Origin: Escherichia phage BF17
DNA length: 64,000 nt
Sequence record: MW822008.1
Strand: one strand, 5' to 3'
Positions 2,526 to 12,142 of the stretch are shown here, piece by piece (within the stretch, counting starts at the first letter, position 1; every line of letters starts with the position of its first letter). The position numbers were made by a program, and so were the translations under genes. The notes below the pieces were generated by a model. That model saw nothing but the letters and a program-made list of their open reading frames with translations, searched no databases and was not told the DNA's origin.

Positions 2526-3256
2526 TAGATAAATCCTCCATTACGTAATAGTTCACCACGCTTAAATGCATTTAGGTTGAACTTTTTAGTCATGTAATCA
2601 GATGTTGGTTGTTCTTCAAGTTGAAGCATTACAGATATTTTCTGTGGAACCCATACCTCATCTTGTGGATTCATATATCCAGTACTTCTAAGCTGTTCGA
2701 AGAATTGACGACTATCCATATCAGATAAATTAAAAGTACTATCACTACTATTCAATGGAACCTGAATATAAGAAACATCATTTGGATATGTAAAATTATA
2801 TGCTTTCAAAATAACAGGAATATCATTATATGTATAACGACCATACCCACTTAATAGTAAAATTGGCGGTGGTGCACCTGCAATTGCTAGTTCGGGATTA
2901 TTAGCAGATGCTGCTTGACGACCAAAGTCCATTAAGGACACGGAACGAATAAAATGAACACAAGCCAATGCATACATTGCTTCAGCAGCAGTGTTTGCAT
3001 AAAACTCACCTTGGATAGTGAAAATTGTGTTTGTTGTATTCTTGTAGTTGTTGTAGTTACTGTTAGTATGTATAGGGGACTGTGTTTCATATTGAACCGA
3101 CCTTTGTTCAGTTACAGTTGGGGTTACAGTCCAAACCAAACCATTTGTTGGACGCAGAAACGATAGCAATGTTGGCTCTGAACTGTTGCCAAAATCACCA
3201 TACACATAGTTAGCACCTGCGGTTTTAGGTCTTAATCGGATTCTACGATCAATCAT
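2525..3256 (-). CDS. Hypothetical structural protein (about 243 aa)
   Basis: ATG at 3256 preceded by GGAGAATCAAAAAG; the longer track ORF (to 3346) would run into the divergent gp55 promoter region. Confidence 0.45.
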   Translation of the reverse strand: MIDRRIRLRPKTAGANYVYGDFGNSSEPTLLSFLRPTNGLVWTVTPTVTEQRSVQYETQSPIHTNSNYNNYKNTTNTIFTIQGEFYANTAAEAMYALACVHFIRSVSLMDFGRQAASANNPELAIAGAPPPILLLSGYGRYTYNDIPVILKAYNFTYPNDVSYIQVPLNSSDSTFNLSDMDSRQFFEQLRSTGYMNPQDEVWVPQKISVMLQLEEQPTSDYMTKKFNLNAFKRGELLRNGGFI

Positions 3257-3321
3257 CTTTTTGATTCTCCATAAGAAGGGAACATTTGATGTATTTATAC
3301 GTGGGACAAAGACGTTTTTGG

Positions 3322-3330
3322 TGCTATAAT
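3322..3330 (+). promoter_or_regulatory. Extended -10 promoter motif TGCTATAAT upstream of the gp55-like gene
   Basis: ggTGCTATAAT about 60 nt upstream of the ATG at 3388; same 9-mer recurs at 5 other intergenic sites. Confidence 0.4.
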
Positions 3331-3387
3331 AACATTGATGGTACAAGGAATGTACCTATTGGATTTAAAACATGGAGAGTTGAAATA

Positions 3388-4227
3388 ATGACAAATAGGC
3401 CGAAGCGTAAAAAGTATCTTAACAATGCTGATTTACTTCGTGAGATACAAAAAAGTAAAATCTCATATTGCTGGTTACTAGATAAGTGCTACAGTATGTA
3501 CGATTATATCGTTTTTGATGAATCCGAAATTACAGCAGAACTTTTAGATAAAGCTAAAGCAGCACGTATTAAACGTCTCAACAATGAAATGCTTGATGCA
3601 ATTCGTGAAAAAGAAGGTATGAGTGCGAAGAAAGCGAAGGAATACGCAGATGAGCACAATTTAGTACTAACTGATGTACCTATCGATGAGGTGGTTATTC
3701 GTGTAATTACCGATGAACATATCCCAGCAGATACAAGAGTAAATTTTGAACCATTCAAACATTACATTGTAGATGAAGAAGGTATTCTGTACGAAGTTGT
3801 TCGTTCTCACTGGAAAGGTGATCTTGAAGACGGAGAATTCAGTACTGTTCATGGTAAAATCACTAATGAACTAGGTAAAATGTTCATTAAACTGGCAGAG
3901 GAAATCTCACACAAATCCAACTATAGAAACTATACATATTTGGATGAAATGATGGGTGATGCCAGAATACAATTAGTTAAAAACGCACTTCTCTTTAAAG
4001 AGAGTATTCTTTACAAAAAAGATAAACCAGCAGTACAGTTGAATCCTTTCTCTTACTATACTTCGTTCGTTAACAATAGTTTCCGTTCGATTCTTAATAG
4101 TGAGAAAAATGTTCGTAACATCCGAGACGATTTACTTGAGATGCATGGTTTTACACCATCACACACTCGTCAAATCGAAATTGAAATGAACATGATTGAA
4201 AGGAAAAACGAAGATGGCTCTATTTGA
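3388..4227 (+). CDS. 55: Late-transcription sigma factor, T4 gp55 family (280 aa, with an internal insertion relative to T4)
   Basis: GGAG then ATG at 3388; N-terminal 'NNADLLREI' and C-terminal 'NYTYLDEMMGDARIQLVKNALLFK...NPFSYYTSFVNNSF' align with remembered T4 gp55 blocks; sits directly upstream of gp47/gp46 as in T4. Confidence 0.75.
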   Translation: MTNRPKRKKYLNNADLLREIQKSKISYCWLLDKCYSMYDYIVFDESEITAELLDKAKAARIKRLNNEMLDAIREKEGMSAKKAKEYADEHNLVLTDVPIDEVVIRVITDEHIPADTRVNFEPFKHYIVDEEGILYEVVRSHWKGDLEDGEFSTVHGKITNELGKMFIKLAEEISHKSNYRNYTYLDEMMGDARIQLVKNALLFKESILYKKDKPAVQLNPFSYYTSFVNNSFRSILNSEKNVRNIRDDLLEMHGFTPSHTRQIEIEMNMIERKNEDGSI

Positions 4228-5245
4228 TAAAGCAATTACATTTACTGATATTCATTTAGGATTAAAGAATAACAGCAAGCAGCACAACGAAGATTGTTTG
4301 AACTTCATCAAGTTTATGATTGAACTTGCTAAGAAAAATGGTATTACTGTATGCGTGTTTATGGGAGATTACTTCCATAACCGCAGTAATATTAACATTC
4401 AAACATTAAACTATGGTTTACAAATTCTACAATTACTAAATGACAACTTTGATAAGGTTTACTTCTTAGTTGGGAACCATGACATGTATCATAAAAATAA
4501 ACGTGACATTACTAGTATTAATATGGCACAAGTTTATGAGAACATCGAGTTCATTAATGAAATCACAACATTTGATGATTGTACTTTCATTCCATTTATG
4601 ATTGAAGATGAATACAAAGTTCTACCTCAACTTAAAAGTAAGTATGTTTTTGGTCACTTAGAGTTACCTGGATACTTGCTCAATAAAATGGTTGAGATGC
4701 CAGATCATGGTAAAGAGACTGAAGGTTCTTTTGGTGGTTGTGAGTATGTTTTTAGTGGACATTTCCATAAGAGACAAGCAAAAACAACATCAAAAGGAAC
4801 TCGTGTAATTTACACAGGTAACTGTTTCCCACATAACTTTTCTGATACTTGGGATGATGCAAGAGGTGTGATGATTTTAGAACATGGCAAAGAACCAACT
4901 TTCCATTCTTGGTCAGAAGCACCAAAATATAGAACATTTACACTTTCAGAACTATTAACAGATCCAAGTTATTATCTTCAAGACAATACTATTTCAAAGG
5001 TTCAAGTTGATATTGCTATCACTACTGATGAGATTAGTTTTATTCGTGATACTTTTACTAAACTTTATAACATTCGTGAGTTTAACGTTGTTACTAGCAA
5101 GCAAAGTATCAAAGAACTTATTGAAGATGGTGAAAGCTTTGAAAGTACTGAGTCAGTTGATGAGATTGTGTTACAACAAATCATGGAAATTGATTCACCT
5201 ATGTTCGATAAAAATCTTCTAATCCAAATTTACAGATCACTATAA
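4214..5245 (+). CDS. 47: Recombination endonuclease subunit, Mre11/SbcD-like (T4 gp47 family)
   Basis: Calcineurin-like phosphoesterase motifs: 'TDIHLG', 'GDYFH', 'GNHD', 'GHLE...', 'SGHFH'; followed by the Rad50-like partner. Confidence 0.85.
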   Translation: MALFDKAITFTDIHLGLKNNSKQHNEDCLNFIKFMIELAKKNGITVCVFMGDYFHNRSNINIQTLNYGLQILQLLNDNFDKVYFLVGNHDMYHKNKRDITSINMAQVYENIEFINEITTFDDCTFIPFMIEDEYKVLPQLKSKYVFGHLELPGYLLNKMVEMPDHGKETEGSFGGCEYVFSGHFHKRQAKTTSKGTRVIYTGNCFPHNFSDTWDDARGVMILEHGKEPTFHSWSEAPKYRTFTLSELLTDPSYYLQDNTISKVQVDIAITTDEISFIRDTFTKLYNIREFNVVTSKQSIKELIEDGESFESTESVDEIVLQQIMEIDSPMFDKNLLIQIYRSL

Positions 5246-5257
5246 GGGAAATTTATT

Positions 5258-7405
5258 GTGCTAAACATTACACGTATATCAATGAGGAACTTCTTTTCAT
5301 TTGGCAATGCACCACAAGTAATTGATTTGTCTGGTGCTGATATATCGTTAGTTCTTGGTCAAAACAATGATGCAGTTATTGAAGGTGGTGATAGTTCCGG
5401 TCGCCGTAATGGTGTTGGTAAAAGTGCCATAATTCAAGGTTTAGTTTTTGGTTTGTTTGGAAAAAGTATTGGTAACGATATCAAAATTCCAAACTTAGTT
5501 AATAAAACTAATGCTAAAAACTGTGAAGTATCTGTTGAGTTCGAGAAAGATGGTGTACAATATCTCGTCGAGCGTGGGAGAAGTCCCACGTATTTCAACT
5601 TTATTACATTAGGTAAAGATAATAAGGTCGAAGATGAGTCAAGAGGGGAGAAGAAAGATACACAAGAAGATCTAAACGAGATTCTTGGGATTTCTCAACT
5701 ACTATTTGAACATATTGTAGTACTTAATGCTAACGTAGAGCCGTTTCTTGCATTATCATCACAGAAACAACGTGATATGATTGAGGAACTTCTGGGTATC
5801 ACACAATTAACAGAGAAAGCTGAACTATTAAAGGATATGTATAAAGATTCTAAACGTTTAGCTGAACAAGAAAAGTTCAAAATTGAAACTGTGGCTGCAA
5901 GTAATGAACGTATTCAAAAAAGTATTGAATCATTACAAGAACAAGCTAACCAATTTGAGATTGATAAAAATAATAGAGTATCTAAGTTGACTGAAGAATT
6001 GAATATCTACAAAACTTTAGACTTCAACGATCTCTATGATTTGGCAGAAGTGAAAGAGAAAGCTCTTATTCATAATGCTGCTCGTGATCAAATAGAAAGA
6101 CGTGTACAAGAGTTAGCTTTGAAGTATGATGCATATGACCGTGAACTGGCAACAGCAAAATTAGCATTAAATGTAAGTATTGATAAGCTAAAAACTATTG
6201 ATATCAGTACTGAATTAGAAAATCACAATGAGTTGGAGATATGGAAACAGTTGGAGGGTATTCTAAAAGAGAATAATAACCAAAAACGTTTCAAAGAACA
6301 AAAACTTAACGCATTAAAGGTGGCGTTAAATGGACATGATAGTTCTTTACGTGCTGAGGTGGACAAATTAGCAACAGTGGAGAGTAGTAAATGTCCACTT
6401 TGTATGTCCGAATTAGAACATAATGAACATACTTCGTCTATTAAAGATAAAATTCAAAATACTATTAATGAACTTCAATCTAAAATTGATAGTTCCACTT
6501 CTGAAATTGAAACATTACTTCAGGAAATTGATAGTATTGAGATTTTTGATATGCCACCTAAGCCTGTGACATTCTATTCTACACTAACTGAAGCACAAAT
6601 GCATGAGCATAAGCTTCAAGAACTTATTAAAAAGAGTGAAGAAGAGCAAATTAACATCTATGCTAATGAACTTATGTCATCATATGAAGAACTGAACGCA
6701 CATGTTCTTCAAGAAGTACCAGATACATTGAATAAATCTGAAGTAAAAGAGTTAGAAATGACTGTAACTTCATTATCACAGCAATTAGATCGTGAATTGA
6801 AAACTACTAACACATTTATTGGACAAATTAATACACTTACGACCGATTCATTAGTACCAATCGACTATAGTGACTATAATAACCTTGATAAGATGGCAAA
6901 TCACCAAGATTTCTTGGTTAAATTGTTGTTAAACAAGGATTCTTATGTCCGTAAGCGTATTATTGAACAAAACATTTCGTATCTGAATACACGTCTTCAA
7001 TATTACATTGATATGTGTGGTTCTGAACATAATGTTGTGTTCTTGAATGATTTGAGTGTAGAAATTGAGAAAAGTGGTCAGTACTTTGACTATAAACAGC
7101 TTAGTCGTGGTGAGCGTACAAGGGTAAACATTGCTTTATCTTGTGCTTTCCGTGATACATATGAGTCATTGTATCAAAGTATCAATATTCTTATCATTGA
7201 TGAGATGATTGACCAAGGTCTTGATTCAAGTGGTGTTCTTCGCGTGTGGTCTATCTTCCAAGATATGGCTGCTGTGCGTGGTAAGAATGTATATGCCATT
7301 TCTCACAGAGAAGAATTGCTTTCTAAGACTGAGAAAATCCTAAAAGTAGTTAAAGAGGATGGTTTCAGTACTGTTGAGTATACAACTCTTGATGATGTAT
7401 TCTAA
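5258..7405 (+). CDS. 46: Recombination endonuclease ATPase subunit, Rad50/SbcC-like (T4 gp46 family)
   Basis: Probable GTG start after AAGGGA; Walker A 'GRRNGVGKSAI', long central coiled coil with CPLC zinc hook, C-terminal 'LSRGERTRVNIAL' signature and 'LIIDE' Walker B. Confidence 0.85.
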   Translation: MLNITRISMRNFFSFGNAPQVIDLSGADISLVLGQNNDAVIEGGDSSGRRNGVGKSAIIQGLVFGLFGKSIGNDIKIPNLVNKTNAKNCEVSVEFEKDGVQYLVERGRSPTYFNFITLGKDNKVEDESRGEKKDTQEDLNEILGISQLLFEHIVVLNANVEPFLALSSQKQRDMIEELLGITQLTEKAELLKDMYKDSKRLAEQEKFKIETVAASNERIQKSIESLQEQANQFEIDKNNRVSKLTEELNIYKTLDFNDLYDLAEVKEKALIHNAARDQIERRVQELALKYDAYDRELATAKLALNVSIDKLKTIDISTELENHNELEIWKQLEGILKENNNQKRFKEQKLNALKVALNGHDSSLRAEVDKLATVESSKCPLCMSELEHNEHTSSIKDKIQNTINELQSKIDSSTSEIETLLQEIDSIEIFDMPPKPVTFYSTLTEAQMHEHKLQELIKKSEEEQINIYANELMSSYEELNAHVLQEVPDTLNKSEVKELEMTVTSLSQQLDRELKTTNTFIGQINTLTTDSLVPIDYSDYNNLDKMANHQDFLVKLLLNKDSYVRKRIIEQNISYLNTRLQYYIDMCGSEHNVVFLNDLSVEIEKSGQYFDYKQLSRGERTRVNIALSCAFRDTYESLYQSINILIIDEMIDQGLDSSGVLRVWSIFQDMAAVRGKNVYAISHREELLSKTEKILKVVKEDGFSTVEYTTLDDVF

Positions 7406-7415
7406 TTAAAAGGAA

Positions 7416-7439
7416 AGGGAGCCTTAGCTCCCTTTTTTT
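7416..7439. terminator. Hairpin + T-run terminator between convergent genes (gp46 and the Endo VII-like gene)
   Basis: agGGAGCcttaGCTCCCttttttt; A-rich on the other side, so may work in both directions. Confidence 0.6.
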
Positions 7440-7915
7440 ATATCTACCATATTTAATTTGCCTTCCTTGATAAGCTTTCTGGCTTGCTTAACACGAGCAG
7501 CATTGTTTGCACCAGGGATAACACCTAACTCTTCCAGTATTGCATTCTGTTGTCCTGCTGGGAGCCTTTTAAACTTATTCGTATCGATTGTTAGTGCAGT
7601 GTGATGTATAACTTGCTCATCTTCAGGAATGCTGTTATTACGCTCCAGATAATCCGCAAGATTTCGTAGTACCTCGTATAAGGGTTTATCGGTTAAGTGC
7701 TTCATATAGCGATTAAAGCTGTTCTGTACTTTACCTTCCCATGCGTTCACTTCGTTCTGGAGAACTTCACGACAGTGTTGATTCTCGAAGTGATAGTGAT
7801 CAAGTACTGGCTTAGTTATTGGTTCCTTAATTATAGGATCAATTCCTTTTTGCTTCTTTAGTAATTCATTTCGATAGTTTGCAGCTTCTTTACTATCTTT
7901 TAATCTTTTCTTCAT
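7424..7915 (-). CDS. Endonuclease VII-like (T4 gp49 family) junction-resolvase homolog, apparently lacking the zinc-binding cysteines
   Basis: 'VLDHYHFEN' and 'NAWEGKVQNSFNR...YEVLRNLADYLE' resemble remembered T4 Endo VII blocks ('HLDHDHELN', 'NAAEGQMKHKFNR...YLEWLENLLTYL'); only one Cys present where T4 has two CxxC pairs. Confidence 0.4.
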   Translation of the reverse strand: MKKRLKDSKEAANYRNELLKKQKGIDPIIKEPITKPVLDHYHFENQHCREVLQNEVNAWEGKVQNSFNRYMKHLTDKPLYEVLRNLADYLERNNSIPEDEQVIHHTALTIDTNKFKRLPAGQQNAILEELGVIPGANNAARVKQARKLIKEGKLNMVDIKKGS

Positions 7916-8028
7916 AAATCCCCACTAAACTAATTCTTATCAAAATATTTATGCGTTACTTCAATGTTCAAGAATTATGTACTTTTTATAAATTTTTTAT
8001 CATAATAGTGAGACACTTTTGAATTTGG

Positions 8029-8037
8029 TGCTATAAT
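8029..8037 (+). promoter_or_regulatory. Extended -10 promoter motif TGCTATAAT at the start of an ORF-free island
   Basis: tttggTGCTATAATgtt; near-identical flank to the motif at 3322. Confidence 0.4.
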
Positions 8038-8039
8038 GT

Positions 8040-8498
8040 TAATTGTAGTGATGACAATCCTGTTGAATGCAGAAATGCATATAAATTAGAACCTGATCCT
8101 ATCGAAAATGTAGATGGCAGATGAGCAGTTCAACAGTGCGATGAGCAGAAGAAACCCGTTAGATGTGGGCATAGTTTGAACCCCTCACGGCGACACGGCT
8201 CAATAAAGAACTCCGATAAGCATACAGAGAGTTCCTCGATAGATGTATAAGGATCGCACCTTACCAGATTTGCTAAGGGAGTTTATTAAGTGATTTAATA
8301 AACAGCCTGAAGTTTGATTGTATAGACTTTCAGGTGAGTGTCAGGATGATTAAGACTGACGACCGTTGCACATGACTGCGATAGAGAGAAACAGAGCAAC
8401 CCGCTTTCGTTCTTAATGAATTTTAAGAAATTCGCAATACAATAAATGCTGAAACCATCAGCGTCAAGAATTAAGAGACTTAATTGTCTCTTTTTTAT
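8040..8498 (+). ncRNA. Candidate non-coding transcript (promoter-to-terminator unit with no credible ORF)
   Basis: Bounded by the TGCTATAAT motif (8029-8037) and the terminator (8473-8498); only short plus-strand ORFs (21 aa or less) without RBS; several GC-rich hairpins (e.g. CCCCTGCGGGGGG at 8509-8521, GTCAG...CTGAC). Confidence 0.2.
8473..8498 (+). terminator. Intrinsic terminator
   Basis: AAGAGACttaattGTCTCTTttttatt (7 bp stem, 6 nt loop, T-run). Confidence 0.55.
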
Positions 8499-8710
8499 TG
8501 TCTTCATTCCCCTGCGGGGGGATGAAAATGTCTTCAACAAATCCCGTCAAGTATTAAATCTTTTAAAGTTCTTTATAATTAATTATAAGAAATGAATATG
8601 AGTTACGTAGTAACGAATATTCTTCAGCTAACGAATGAAATGAGTTAGATGAGTTCACTATAAAATAATTAATTCCTTTCATAATTCAATTCAATCAATT
8701 CTGTAGTTTA

Positions 8711-8741
8711 AAACCAAAAAAAACCAGCAACAATGTGCTGG
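8711..8741 (-). terminator. Intrinsic terminator for the minus-strand pair 8753-9798
   Basis: On the minus strand: CCAGCAcattgtTGCTGG followed by a 9-10 nt T-run (plus-strand aaaccaaaaaaaaCCAGCAacaatgTGCTGG). Confidence 0.55.
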
Positions 8742-8752
8742 CTCCTTGTGAG

Positions 8753-8962
8753 TTAGTGCTTCTCGTTTTGTTTTTTAATTTTCTTATTAAAAGACTTAAC
8801 TAATAAGTCTCTATCAATTAGTGGCATATTAAGTAGTGTTCCGTAATCAACACTTTCCATATAAACAGAACACTCCATTAATGCAGTTTTAATATCTGAC
8901 TTATTCAACTCAAATTCCTTAAGTACTTCTTGTATTTCTTCAGGAGATGAGTGGAGAAGCAT
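8753..8962 (-). CDS. Hypothetical small protein (69 aa)
   Basis: ORF in the same unit as the upstream zinc-ribbon protein; no recognisable motif. Confidence 0.4.
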   Translation of the reverse strand: MLLHSSPEEIQEVLKEFELNKSDIKTALMECSVYMESVDYGTLLNMPLIDRDLLVKSFNKKIKKQNEKH

Positions 8963-9798
8963 TATGCGAAAAAATGACTTGGGTCATATTTCAGTCCATT
9001 AATTTCCCATTGATGATTACAGTCACTGCATTCAACTTCCATAGTATGGGAAACACCAATTTCAAGTACTTCATCCATTTTTTCACGAATTATTTTAAGT
9101 GTTCCTTTGGACTGCTGACCTAGCCATTCAGAAATGAATTCATTTTCAGTTACTTCATCACCTTCAGGTGTAATTACCTTAGCAATAACTCCTGCGATCA
9201 TATCAAAGTTGAGTTGTGCCATACTTTCAAATACTTCACCAAACACTTTAACTTTTTCTTCCTGCTCCATTTCGGCAGTTTCAAGGAATTTAGTTTTTTG
9301 TTGTTCTGTAAACATTCTTTCTGCGAAGTTAGAATATTCCTTCCAAGTAAGTGGTCTAAACTCTAAACTTAGTCCATTATCCAATTGTACAGTAGGAACT
9401 TCACTGAAAGTTTGTGCTGTTTCTAGTAGATATGATAAGCTACGCTCAAAACGACCTTCTTTGTTACATTCAGGGCATGTCACATTAATATCATATGATT
9501 CTTCTTTAGAAGCTACTTTAATAGCGATAAGTAGTTGCTCTACGTCATTTACATAAAGTTCATCTGCATCAAGTACGTTAGGTACGCAGTTTTCAATAAC
9601 ACGAGCAATTGCATCACCATTTAGAAGCATATCTGGTGTATTGAGTGTCATTTCATCACGTGCACTACGAGCACAAATGCCACATTTGATACCTTTAGAG
9701 CCAAGAACTCCTTCTTTATAAGGAATCACGCCATTTGTGACCAATTTTGTACCAAGTTCTTCAATTTTAGTATACTTAGCTAGTGGGTTCATTGCCAT
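8962..9798 (-). CDS. Hypothetical zinc-ribbon-containing protein (about 278 aa)
   Basis: GGAG then ATG at 9798 (MAMNPLAKY...); cysteine pairs 'CGIC', 'CPEC', 'CSDC'; acidic C-terminus. Confidence 0.5.
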   Translation of the reverse strand: MAMNPLAKYTKIEELGTKLVTNGVIPYKEGVLGSKGIKCGICARSARDEMTLNTPDMLLNGDAIARVIENCVPNVLDADELYVNDVEQLLIAIKVASKEESYDINVTCPECNKEGRFERSLSYLLETAQTFSEVPTVQLDNGLSLEFRPLTWKEYSNFAERMFTEQQKTKFLETAEMEQEEKVKVFGEVFESMAQLNFDMIAGVIAKVITPEGDEVTENEFISEWLGQQSKGTLKIIREKMDEVLEIGVSHTMEVECSDCNHQWEINGLKYDPSHFFA

Positions 9799-9943
9799 TT
9801 TATTAAATCTCCATGTAATAAATGTCTTTGTAGTATTTATTACCAAAAAATGGGACAAATTGGACAAATGTTATAGATGGGTCTTTTTTATTCGTTATAG
9901 ATTCATAAATATTTCTATAATACATCTATTAAAAGGGAATGTT

Positions 9944-12142
9944 ATGGCTGTCAATACAAGTGATTACCTACTACAGCAGTTGGTTAATCAAACTAAAGAT
10001 AACAATGATAGTTTGACTGCTATCCGTGAGTTATTAGCTGAAAATATAAAGAATGATAAGAAAAAATCAGGTTCAAATAGTAAAAAGAATGGTTCCAGTT
10101 CCAGTTCTTCCAGTAATCGTGGAAATCGTGGAAGTGCACAAGCCGATGACGGGAAAGCATTTGGTAAATTGTTCAAATCACTATCTTCTGAAGTTTCTAA
10201 TGTAAGCAAAACAATGATGAACTCCAGTACCAACGTAAGTACTGTAGTAAACTCATTAGGCGTTAGTGCATCATCATTTGCTGGTTCATTAGCAATGATG
10301 CCAGGTCCAATTGGTGCAGCGGCAGCAGCATTTAAACTCGTTACTGGTGCTGGTCTTGCTGTATATAACGCACTTAATGCACAATTGGAAGTATATACCA
10401 GAATTAACAGTGCTGGTGTTGCATTGGCTGAAGGTTATGGTTCAGTACTGAAAGGTGCAGGTGCATCTATGTTGAGTATGGATGCATTCAGTGAAGCTCT
10501 ACAAACACATAGTTCTGTGGTAGCTCAATTGGATGGGGCATATGGTGATGGTGTTGCTACCTTTGGTAAATTATTAGGAACTGTTCAACAAGCTCAAAAT
10601 GAACTTGGCCTTTATGGTATTTCTCAAAAAACATTAACTGATTTAACTGCAAGAAACATTAAGTTCCAAAAACAATATGGTGGTCGTGAAGCTCTTCGTA
10701 GTATGGACCAAGCTAAAAGTACTGAACAATTCATCATGAGCATGACTAAATTCAGTAAAAGCATGGGTGAGTCCGTTGATGCATTACTAAACAAAACACA
10801 AAACCTAGATAAATCACTCGATACGCGTTCTATGCAAATTGCATTGCAGAACTACTCTGGACTATCCAGTAAAGCTGCTGTAGCAACATCTAAGGCGTTC
10901 AACGAAGCTGCGGGTGCAATGGGTGATGCAGGTGCAGATTTCCTCCGTTTGATATCACACAGATTGTCTATTGGTGGCGTACCGGATGACCTACTCACTC
11001 CAGTACTGAACCAGTTCGCTGATTTAGGTGAAAATCTTGTGCGTAGTGGTGTAACTGATTCACAAGAAATTCGTCGCCAACAATTAGAATTCGTTAAAAA
11101 GAATAAAGAATTAATTAAGCAAGATTTGCTTAACCAGATTCAATTAGGAAACACAACTGCTGCAACCTTCTACCAACAACTATTGGATATGGAAGCAACC
11201 GTAAATGAACCTAAAAATAATCCCGCTGATAAATTAACTCAATTTACTAACCGCTTCAATATGTGGATTAGTAAAGAATTCACTGAACCATTTAATACAA
11301 TGTATGCTAATACACAAAATTCAATTGTGGATTATCTTTCAGACATTGCAGACAGAACTGATGGTGCATGGGAGTTTATTGGGGAATTGGCTCTTGATGG
11401 ATTTGGGTTAGTACCTATTGCTAAAGATGCAATTGCTTACCTTGATCGTATTGGTGCTGAATTTACAGCTTGGTTGGATGGATTGGGTGCAGATATATTC
11501 GGTTCAGGTTACTCTAAAGTGTCAGAAGCATTTGATACCTTTATGAATAACTTAATGGATTTACCTGGTAACCTATGGAATTCTGTTAAAAGTTGGTTCG
11601 GTGGTGGTTCTGATAATGATATAAAACTCAATAACAGTACTGAAACCCCAGCAGAAAGCGTAAACAACATCATTGACAACGGTGTAAATAGTGTTAGTGA
11701 TTATTTTGCAGGGATGTGGGATAAGTTCAACAAATGGAACACCGCACGTAACTACAAAGAACCAAAACCACTACCATCTGATTATGCTGACAGTTTATTC
11801 AACCGTCCAGGAGTAGAACGTATTCGTCCTGTTATTGAAAAAACCAATAACGTTGCTCCAGAAATAACTGTATCTCGTAAAGATTTTGATAAAACTGCAT
11901 GGGCACCAGGTGAACCACCAGTTCCACCAAAACCTGACGATACAGAGGCAATTAAGAAGATGATAAATAATGGTAGTGCAGTGACATCGAGAACTGGACC
12001 ACCAGCACCGATTTCTGATGAAATGAAAGAAATACTCAAAAAGCTTGCCGATGTTAATGAACAATCACTATCTGCTGTACAACAGACAAATAATTATCTA
12101 AGAACTATCTCTGAAAACACCCAAGGTGAGAGAAACAGTTAA
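9944..12142 (+). CDS. Tape-measure-like or injected structural protein (732 aa, low-complexity, Gly/Ala/Ser-rich)
   Basis: ATG at 9944 after AAAGGGA; Ser run 'NGSSSSSSSNRG', hydrophobic Gly/Ala segment 'MMPGPIGAAAAAFKLVTGAGLAVY'; directly upstream of the portal gene. The track's longer ORF from 9737 overlaps the divergent gene. Confidence 0.35.
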   Translation: MAVNTSDYLLQQLVNQTKDNNDSLTAIRELLAENIKNDKKKSGSNSKKNGSSSSSSSNRGNRGSAQADDGKAFGKLFKSLSSEVSNVSKTMMNSSTNVSTVVNSLGVSASSFAGSLAMMPGPIGAAAAAFKLVTGAGLAVYNALNAQLEVYTRINSAGVALAEGYGSVLKGAGASMLSMDAFSEALQTHSSVVAQLDGAYGDGVATFGKLLGTVQQAQNELGLYGISQKTLTDLTARNIKFQKQYGGREALRSMDQAKSTEQFIMSMTKFSKSMGESVDALLNKTQNLDKSLDTRSMQIALQNYSGLSSKAAVATSKAFNEAAGAMGDAGADFLRLISHRLSIGGVPDDLLTPVLNQFADLGENLVRSGVTDSQEIRRQQLEFVKKNKELIKQDLLNQIQLGNTTAATFYQQLLDMEATVNEPKNNPADKLTQFTNRFNMWISKEFTEPFNTMYANTQNSIVDYLSDIADRTDGAWEFIGELALDGFGLVPIAKDAIAYLDRIGAEFTAWLDGLGADIFGSGYSKVSEAFDTFMNNLMDLPGNLWNSVKSWFGGGSDNDIKLNNSTETPAESVNNIIDNGVNSVSDYFAGMWDKFNKWNTARNYKEPKPLPSDYADSLFNRPGVERIRPVIEKTNNVAPEITVSRKDFDKTAWAPGEPPVPPKPDDTEAIKKMINNGSAVTSRTGPPAPISDEMKEILKKLADVNEQSLSAVQQTNNYLRTISENTQGERNS

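Follow-up and report, generated by a model that had tools for sequence, protein, structure and literature searches.

A T4 endonuclease VII homologue of Escherichia phage BF17 in which all four zinc-binding cysteines are replaced

An open reading frame of Escherichia phage BF17 (sequence record MW822008.1; the window analysed is a stretch of 64,000 nucleotides) encodes a genuine full-length homologue of T4 endonuclease VII, as established by sequence profile, fold and gene context, in which none of the four zinc-binding cysteines of the T4 enzyme is retained. According to the list of open reading frames, it occupies positions 7424-7915 of the minus strand, with its ATG at 7913-7915 and its TAA at 7424-7426, and specifies 163 amino acids. 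The protein is best explained as an active resolvase of the endonuclease VII type that cuts Holliday junctions and branched DNA independently of zinc, a reading to which a probability of about 0.78 is assigned; the zinc independence would follow from the absence of the ligands. Across the sequences compared, loss of the cysteines is the rule for a large clade that includes the RaK2-like jumbo phages, the rV5-like Vequintavirinae and some Autographiviridae. Among junction-resolving enzymes, T4 endonuclease VII is the textbook example; its zinc site is considered essential, and the enzyme is used for mismatch detection. The features discussed below are collected in Table 1.

Table 1. Sequence features at and around the endonuclease VII gene, in window coordinates
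Feature	Coordinates	Strand	Basis
gp47/SbcD-like recombination nuclease gene	4196-5245	+	ORF list, annotation of relatives
gp46/SbcC-like recombination nuclease gene	5258-7405	+	ORF list, annotation of relatives
Bidirectional intrinsic-terminator hairpin, AAAGGGAGC-CTTA-GCTCCCTTT	7414..7439	both	terminator scan (minus-strand match 7435..7414)
N57-A-W-E60-G61, start of active-site helix (T4 N62, E65, G66)	7733..7747	-	alignments
Q53-N54-E55-V56, replacing second zinc pair (T4 C58-N-L-C61)	7748..7759	-	HMMER alignment to 1E7D, MAFFT
C48, sole cysteine; aligns with T4 V53 and adjoins invariant R49 (T4 R54)	7772..7774	-	alignment
L38-D39-H40-Y41-H42, first beta-beta-alpha-metal strand (T4 L39 D40 H41 D42 H43)	7790..7804	-	alignments
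D26-P27-I28-I29, replacing first zinc knuckle (T4 C23-L-I-C26)	7829..7840	-	MAFFT
T4-type late-promoter-like motif CATAAATA, 7/8 match to TATAAATA	7946..7953	-	read from sequence
Sigma-70-like promoter, extended -10	8008-8037	+	sequence scan
Structured RNA candidate	~8045-8546	+	conservation, covariation
Intrinsic terminator within the RNA candidate	8473-8498	+	terminator scan
Conserved hairpin CTTCATTCCCC-TGC-GGGGGGATGAA, followed by CAACAAATCyCGTCA	8503-8546	+	kept in 18/18 copies examined

Sequence and structural homology to endonuclease VII

Similarity to endonuclease VII has been detected at the level of profiles, of single sequences and of predicted structure. The protein matches PHROG 423 'endonuclease VII' with an E value of 2.8e-34, its residues 1-148 covering profile positions 1-153 of 159, and the T4 gp49 reference sequence, which is identical to that of PDB 1E7D/1EN7, matches the same PHROG over its full length (E 5.4e-61). 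When a profile built from 66 family sequences was compared with the PDB, the T4 endonuclease VII chains 1E7D, 1E7L and 2QNF were the only significant sequences (E 1.2e-6 to 2.4e-5). A pairwise BLASTP comparison with the T4 enzyme gave 29% identity over 82 residues (E 7e-5), while a single-sequence phmmer search of the PDB returned no match, so that a profile was needed at this step. The Pfam model PF02945 (Endonuclease_7) scored the protein at 16.4 bits, under its cut-off of 23.6, and a precomputed PF02945 match was present in only 7 of the 120 relatives among the closest listed. A weak Pfam match to GAAD (E 0.014, residues 114-139) has been treated as noise.

An AlphaFold2 model computed from the alignment of 66 relatives has a mean pLDDT of 92.8 and contains helices at residues 8-21, 54-70, 79-94, 105-116, 120-129 and 138-150 and strands at 36-41 and 47-53; it reproduces the overall fold, comprising an N-terminal helix, the knuckle, a beta-hairpin, a long helix and a C-terminal helical domain. 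In a Foldseek search of the PDB, the T4 endonuclease VII entries 1E7L, 1EN7 and 2QNF were the only matches below an E value of 0.001 (TM 0.55-0.69, 161 columns), and 1E7L was found with an E value of 7.9e-7 and TM scores of 0.67/0.69 over 161 columns, an alignment length which means that the C-terminal helical domain is included. The predicted monomer is extended (pTM 0.66), a shape that would be compatible with a domain-swapped, S-shaped homodimer.

These results bear out the resemblance to endonuclease VII that had been proposed from the letters of the sequence alone (hereafter the sequence-only reading): PHROG 423, the family profile against 1E7D and Foldseek agree, and the LDH[DY]H, NA[AW]EG, FNR and YL[E] blocks on which it had relied can all be read directly in the protein. 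Of the checks proposed with that reading, structure prediction has recovered the T4 fold with high confidence, and comparison with Endonuclease_7 profiles has given a divided answer, significant for PHROG 423 and the family profile and below threshold for Pfam PF02945.

Replacement of the zinc ligands

Two MAFFT alignments and the HMMER alignment to 1E7D agree that the four T4 zinc ligands are replaced, C23 by D26, C26 by I29, C58 by Q53 and C61 by V56. The sequence-only reading had described non-cysteine residues at both CxxC pairs and a single cysteine in total, and had called for alignment with verified endonuclease VII sequences; that alignment leads to the same description, the single cysteine being C48. 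The structural-zinc pattern CxxC...CxxC, which corresponds to T4 C23, C26, C58 and C61, is thus absent, and since all four ligand positions are non-cysteine the protein is a homologue of endonuclease VII, yet not a canonical zinc-containing one.

The replaced region is confidently predicted, as indicated by a pLDDT of 97-98 for residues 21-40 and 51-60, and the model has a beta-bridge between residues 25 and 32. Both D26 and P27 are invariant in the 66 relatives. The possibility that C48, or cysteines at shifted positions, rebuild a zinc site was considered and rejected: C48 occupies the place of T4 V53, and although this position is cysteine in 120 of 121 close relatives, it is V (64), C (41) or I (22) in the wider cysteine-poor set and is therefore not a conserved ligand.

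Conservation of the active site

Every catalytic residue is kept in this protein, T4 D40, H41, H43, R54, N62, E65 and E86 corresponding to D39, H40, H42, R49, N57, E60 and E81, while the FNR and DYLE blocks lie at residues 67-69 and 88-91. The last of these T4 residues, E86, is important for the T4 enzyme. Among the 66 close relatives, in which mean column identity is 64%, D39, H40, H42, R49, N57 and E60 are invariant, and the equivalents of T4 G66, R74, Y94 and H105 are invariant or nearly so. In 135 cysteine-poor cluster representatives (see below), the equivalents of T4 D40, H41, H43, R54, N62 and G66 are likewise invariant, with one D-to-E exchange, and those of R74, L88, Y94 and H105 are nearly so; the E60 position is E, L or I in this wider clade, although it does not vary among close relatives. 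Such invariance across the clade is the pattern expected from selection for catalysis. In T4, D40 and N62 have been described as metal ligands and roles have also been given to H41 and H43 (PMC6083498).

A four-residue insert, IPED (residues 96-99; nucleotides 7619-7630, minus strand), lies between the DYLE helix and a conserved IHH motif. Many closer relatives have it, among them representatives with ~70-78% identity, whereas it is absent from T4 and from more distant relatives.

Distribution of the cysteine loss

The extent of the loss has been assessed in two samples. The first (n = 121) comprises the query plus the 120 proteins listed as its closest in a search of 5.8 billion proteins, all of which come from RaK2-like phages of Escherichia, Salmonella, Klebsiella, Erwinia, Xanthomonas and Vibrio or from metagenomes. 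In the MAFFT alignment of this set, no protein has the four cysteines (0/121); position 23 in T4 numbering is always D, position 26 is I, T, L or V, position 58 is Q, D or E with rare exceptions, and at position 61 V is found in 95 proteins and C in 19. The second was obtained by searching 1.84 billion cluster representatives with a profile, which yielded 608 matches at E <= 0.001. Among the best 150 of these 608, none of the zinc cysteines is present in 78, one in 60, two in 3, three (CCHC) in 3 and all four in 7, so that 138 of the 150 have at most one, proportions which are biased towards cysteine-less proteins because the search was seeded with a cysteine-less profile. The 135 cysteine-poor representatives have D (80) or C (53) at position 23, P at position 24 in 86, T/L (or I) at position 26, H (38), D (36), S (30) or Q (13) at position 58, and V, A, S or T at position 61, and the first knuckle across the clade reads G-[IL]-D-P-[IL]-[TIL].

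Related genes were found by tblastn in 365 records. The zinc site is also missing from the rV5-like proteins of phages FV3 and Hena1 and from a Ralstonia podophage protein, and the SP6 gp22-like protein of phage ACG-C91 retains CPIC...CRGC. The FV3 homologue (locus positions 514-1089) lacks canonical CxxC pairs and has four shifted cysteines, in the contexts ILCEP, PCLDH, RCRG and SQCTN; since Hena1 keeps only two of these four, a relocated zinc site is unlikely. In a rough neighbour-joining tree computed without the four ligand columns, CCCC and CCHC proteins fall in two small groups amid cysteine-poor ones, the tree being midpoint-rooted, without support values and based on short sequences. 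With the loss seen in 121 of 121 close relatives, in 138 of 150 representatives and in rV5-like phages, its earlier treatment as a peculiarity of one gene does not hold.

Comparison with known nucleases

The closest characterised system is T4 endonuclease VII itself (gp49; PDB 1EN7, 1E7D, 1E7L, 2QNC and 2QNF), with which the present protein shares its PHROG, a similar length (163 vs 157 aa), the same fold, identical active-site residues, the C-terminal helical domain and an association with gp46/gp47-type recombination genes. It differs from the T4 enzyme in having only ~20-29% identity, in the substitutions C23D, C26I, C58Q and C61V, in falling under the PF02945 cut-off, in an inter-strand active-site loop that is 4 residues shorter and in the insert IPED at residues 96-99. 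The rV5-like proteins annotated as 'EndoVII packaging and recombination endonuclease' (Vequintavirinae; FV3 AEZ65227, Hena1 QGZ16236) are 37-48% identical to it in the N-terminal domain and have the same knuckle replacement, G-[IL]-D-P-I-L, without CxxC...CxxC; unlike it, they are longer (167-191 aa) and have another C-terminal tail, and the four shifted cysteines of FV3 are not conserved. The SP6 gp22-like endonuclease VII of Autographiviridae (ACG-C91 YP_006987788) resembles it in the catalytic domain (36% identity over residues 1-104), whereas that protein has the canonical CPIC...CRGC and a short basic C-terminus with no helical domain.

A zinc knuckle is lacking in many His-Me finger nucleases (PMC5714182), and with such His-Me finger/HNH enzymes the present protein has in common a beta-beta-alpha-metal core without a treble-clef zinc site; those enzymes, unlike it, belong to different families and carry other stabilising decorations (PMC5714182). 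The endonuclease VII family itself is treated as zinc-knuckle-containing in PMC5714182 and in the F-CphI paper (PMC6083498).

Genomic setting

Bases 5000-10000 of the window are 99.7% identical to Escherichia phages WPEC3 and vB_Ec-M-J and ~87% identical to phage 121Q; all three, like the source phage, belong to Asteriusvirus, RaK2/121Q-like jumbo coliphages (myophages) with genomes of 350-380 kb, and the source genome is ~380 kb. In vB_Ec-M-J, the annotated order is late sigma factor, SbcD-like, SbcC-like, endonuclease VII (opposite strand), hypothetical protein, baseplate hub, tape measure and portal, the homologous gene being already annotated there as 'endonuclease VII'. The gene thus stands among late and structural genes, at an equal position in 121Q, vB_Ec-M-J and RaK2, and, as a single-copy gene, it keeps its syntenic place throughout Asteriusvirus, Alcyoneusvirus and Mimasvirus. 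In the RaK2 locus (positions 2992-4023), an extra gene, ORF085w (RB49ORF239c-like), separates the endonuclease VII gene from the gp46 homologue. A second resolvase was sought in the first 50 kb of the vB_Ec-M-J genome, where only hypothetical proteins were found.

The gp47 and gp46 (SbcD and SbcC) homologues are convergent with the endonuclease VII gene. The hairpin at 7414-7435 terminates both the SbcC-like and the endonuclease VII genes and is accompanied by T runs on both strands, that of the plus strand being read from the sequence at 7433-7439; the endonuclease VII stop codon lies inside the hairpin loop and the last four codons form one hairpin arm. The convergent arrangement and common terminator recognised in the sequence-only reading are thus confirmed by the coordinates of the frames and by this hairpin. 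The late-promoter-like CATAAATA is located ~30 nt upstream of the endonuclease VII ATG, in the same place where 121Q has a perfect TATAAATA, and a gp55-like late sigma factor is annotated directly upstream of the SbcD gene in vB_Ec-M-J. As a motif match, CATAAATA is a putative late promoter, which would fit late expression and a debranching role before packaging.

A probable resolvase without structural zinc

An active resolvase is the best explanation in view of an active site that is intact and invariant, an architecture like that of gp49, the fixed place beside the gp46/gp47 homologues and the literature. With respect to the literature, it has been reported that RaK2-like phages carry T4-type recombination genes including endonuclease VII (PMC5259590), and that in jumbo phages the distribution of an endonuclease VII-like resolvase is nearly complementary to that of RuvC (PMC7824862). 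The protein would be a small His-Me finger (beta-beta-alpha-metal) nuclease, most likely dimeric like T4 gp49, that cuts Holliday junctions and other forms of branched DNA and so readies replicated, recombining phage DNA for packaging. For catalysis, one Mg2+ would be held by D39 and N57 and H40 would act as general base, with H42, R49, E60 and E81 assisting.

Activity without the zinc site cannot be taken for granted, since that site matters in T4 mutants: C23S and C61S each abolish both activity and DNA binding, and C26S and C58S can be tolerated one at a time, while the double mutant C26S/C58S is inactive (Giraud-Panis 1995, as summarised in PMC6083498). The treble-clef CxxC...CxxC of T4 clamps the N-terminal knuckle onto the beginning of the active-site helix, and what appears to replace it here is an Asp-Pro turn (G-I-D26-P-I-I29) together with Q53 and V56, so that packing and hydrogen bonds may do the job of the metal. 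The Asp-Pro turn could hold the tight turn of the Cys-zinc knuckle via side-chain-to-backbone hydrogen bonds, position 58 (H/D/S/Q) would be able to hydrogen-bond to D23, and the aliphatic or small residues at positions 26 and 61 are consistent with packing at the former place of the metal.

The main rival to this explanation is a remodelled, non-cysteine metal site, in which Mg2+/Ca2+ or a water-liganded zinc would be bound by carboxylate, amide or imidazole groups of the residues that have taken the place of the cysteines (D26 and Q53 here; D+D, D+H or C+H in relatives). The non-random composition of positions 23 (D 80/C 53) and 58 (H 38, D 36, S 30, Q 13) among the 135 representatives speaks for such a site, as does the existence of CCHC intermediates, and adjacent carboxylates such as those of DTDV, DTDT and DTDS would ordinarily require a proton or a cation in between; the frequent D+D at positions 23 and 58 in relatives therefore leaves room for a hard-metal site. 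Two ligands at most would be available, however, because positions 26 (I/T/L) and 61 (V/A/S/T) are aliphatic or small, and the D+Q pair of the present protein can simply hydrogen-bond, so that a remodelled site is considered improbable.

A site- or sequence-specific HNH nuclease, homing or host-DNA-degrading in the manner of F-CphI, has also been considered in place of a junction resolvase, given that the endonuclease VII catalytic motif has been recruited by the homing endonuclease F-CphI (PMC6083498) and by the restriction enzyme Hpy99I (PMC2699513 and PMC5714182). The motif of F-CphI, though, is at its C-terminus in a different architecture, whereas the length and domain order of the present protein equal those of T4 gp49, C-terminal helical domain included. 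Its single-copy gene keeps a fixed place in a recombination/structural module across genera, unlike sporadic homing genes; neither a motif in another architecture nor a sporadic or mobile distribution was found. This architecture and stable synteny make a homing or restriction-type nuclease highly improbable.

A catalytically dead derivative, repurposed for binding branched DNA or for regulation, is hardly credible, for although T4 point mutants that lose the zinc site are inactive and fail to bind DNA (PMC6083498) and the Pfam score is sub-threshold, a dead enzyme would be expected to lose its catalytic residues, and here all are invariant across a deep clade, with the equivalents of T4 D40, H41, H43, R54 and N62 unchanged in the 135 representatives and the 66 relatives. 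The 'repurposed DNA-binding protein' offered by the sequence-only reading is thereby set aside, while its other two suggestions, a 'structurally altered' and a 'zinc-independent' resolvase, are both supported by a protein that is a genuine endonuclease VII homologue over its full length and whose tetra-cysteine site is gone.

A candidate structured RNA beside the gene

An 840-bp gene-free stretch separates the endonuclease VII gene from the next gene. It is ~96% identical overall to 121Q and almost mismatch-free across ~8008-8655, as compared with ~87% for the flanking coding DNA, and it looks like a candidate for a structured RNA family, so far undescribed, that measures ~450-500 nt and belongs to the RaK2-like jumbo phages. 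The RNA core (~8074-8558) has 68-75% identity to sequences in other genera, namely those of Salmonella Munch, Erwinia, Serratia BF, Cronobacter GAP32, Pectobacterium CBB and Yersinia phages, and a partial match in RaK2 lies at a locus other than that of endonuclease VII. Diverged copies of the element occur at 4-5 places in most RaK2-like genomes and at 1-2 in RaK2-group Klebsiella phages, mostly unannotated; a 26-nt conserved core is present at three separate loci of the 121Q genome, and nhmmer finds one copy in the window (8045-8606). In RaK2, where the extra gene ORF085w is present and the upstream gap is only ~365 bp, the copy adjacent to endonuclease VII therefore seems to be absent.

Strong covariation supports a structure for this candidate. 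RNAalifold applied to seven copies predicted 88 pairs, with 96.4% of cells paired as against 38-47% with slid partners and 26 of the 88 pairs changed on both sides as against 1-7, and none of 500 shuffles reached the observed values; with 18 copies, compensatory pair types are present in 44 of the 88 pairs. Scans of the window and related loci with Rfam 15 and for tRNAs returned no match for the candidate. As the conserved hairpin at 8503-8546 lies beyond the internal terminator, either that terminator is read through or the hairpin is a separate conserved signal.

Significance

A literature search for a cysteine-less endonuclease VII that had been described or assayed found none, only genome papers naming the gene. 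Many GenBank records already name the gene endonuclease VII, so that the novelty is modest and the consequence for annotation small; what is new is the zinc-site loss in a large phage endonuclease VII group that has been annotated yet not described. That most of these proteins escape the Pfam Endonuclease_7 model is explained by this loss of cysteines. The multi-copy structured RNA candidate next to the gene may well prove the more valuable lead of the locus.

A bolder proposal, which at present seems unlikely, is that the zinc-free protein is a major and perhaps the dominant natural form of phage endonuclease VII, held together by an Asp(or Cys)-Pro...His/Asp/Gln clamp that is hydrogen-bonded or binds a hard metal. 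If so, the clamp could tie folding or activity to Mg2+/Ca2+ instead of Zn2+, and the family would offer a natural series, CCCC to CCHC to C..H to D..D/Q, for studying the evolutionary removal of a structural zinc in an enzyme for which single Cys-to-Ser exchanges are lethal.

That a deep natural clade keeps the active site and the fold without the cysteine ligands is an indication that, given a suitable sequence context, the enzyme can do without the zinc clamp. The cysteine-less clade may also offer ready starting sequences for junction and mismatch nucleases engineered to be metal-independent and insensitive to oxidation.
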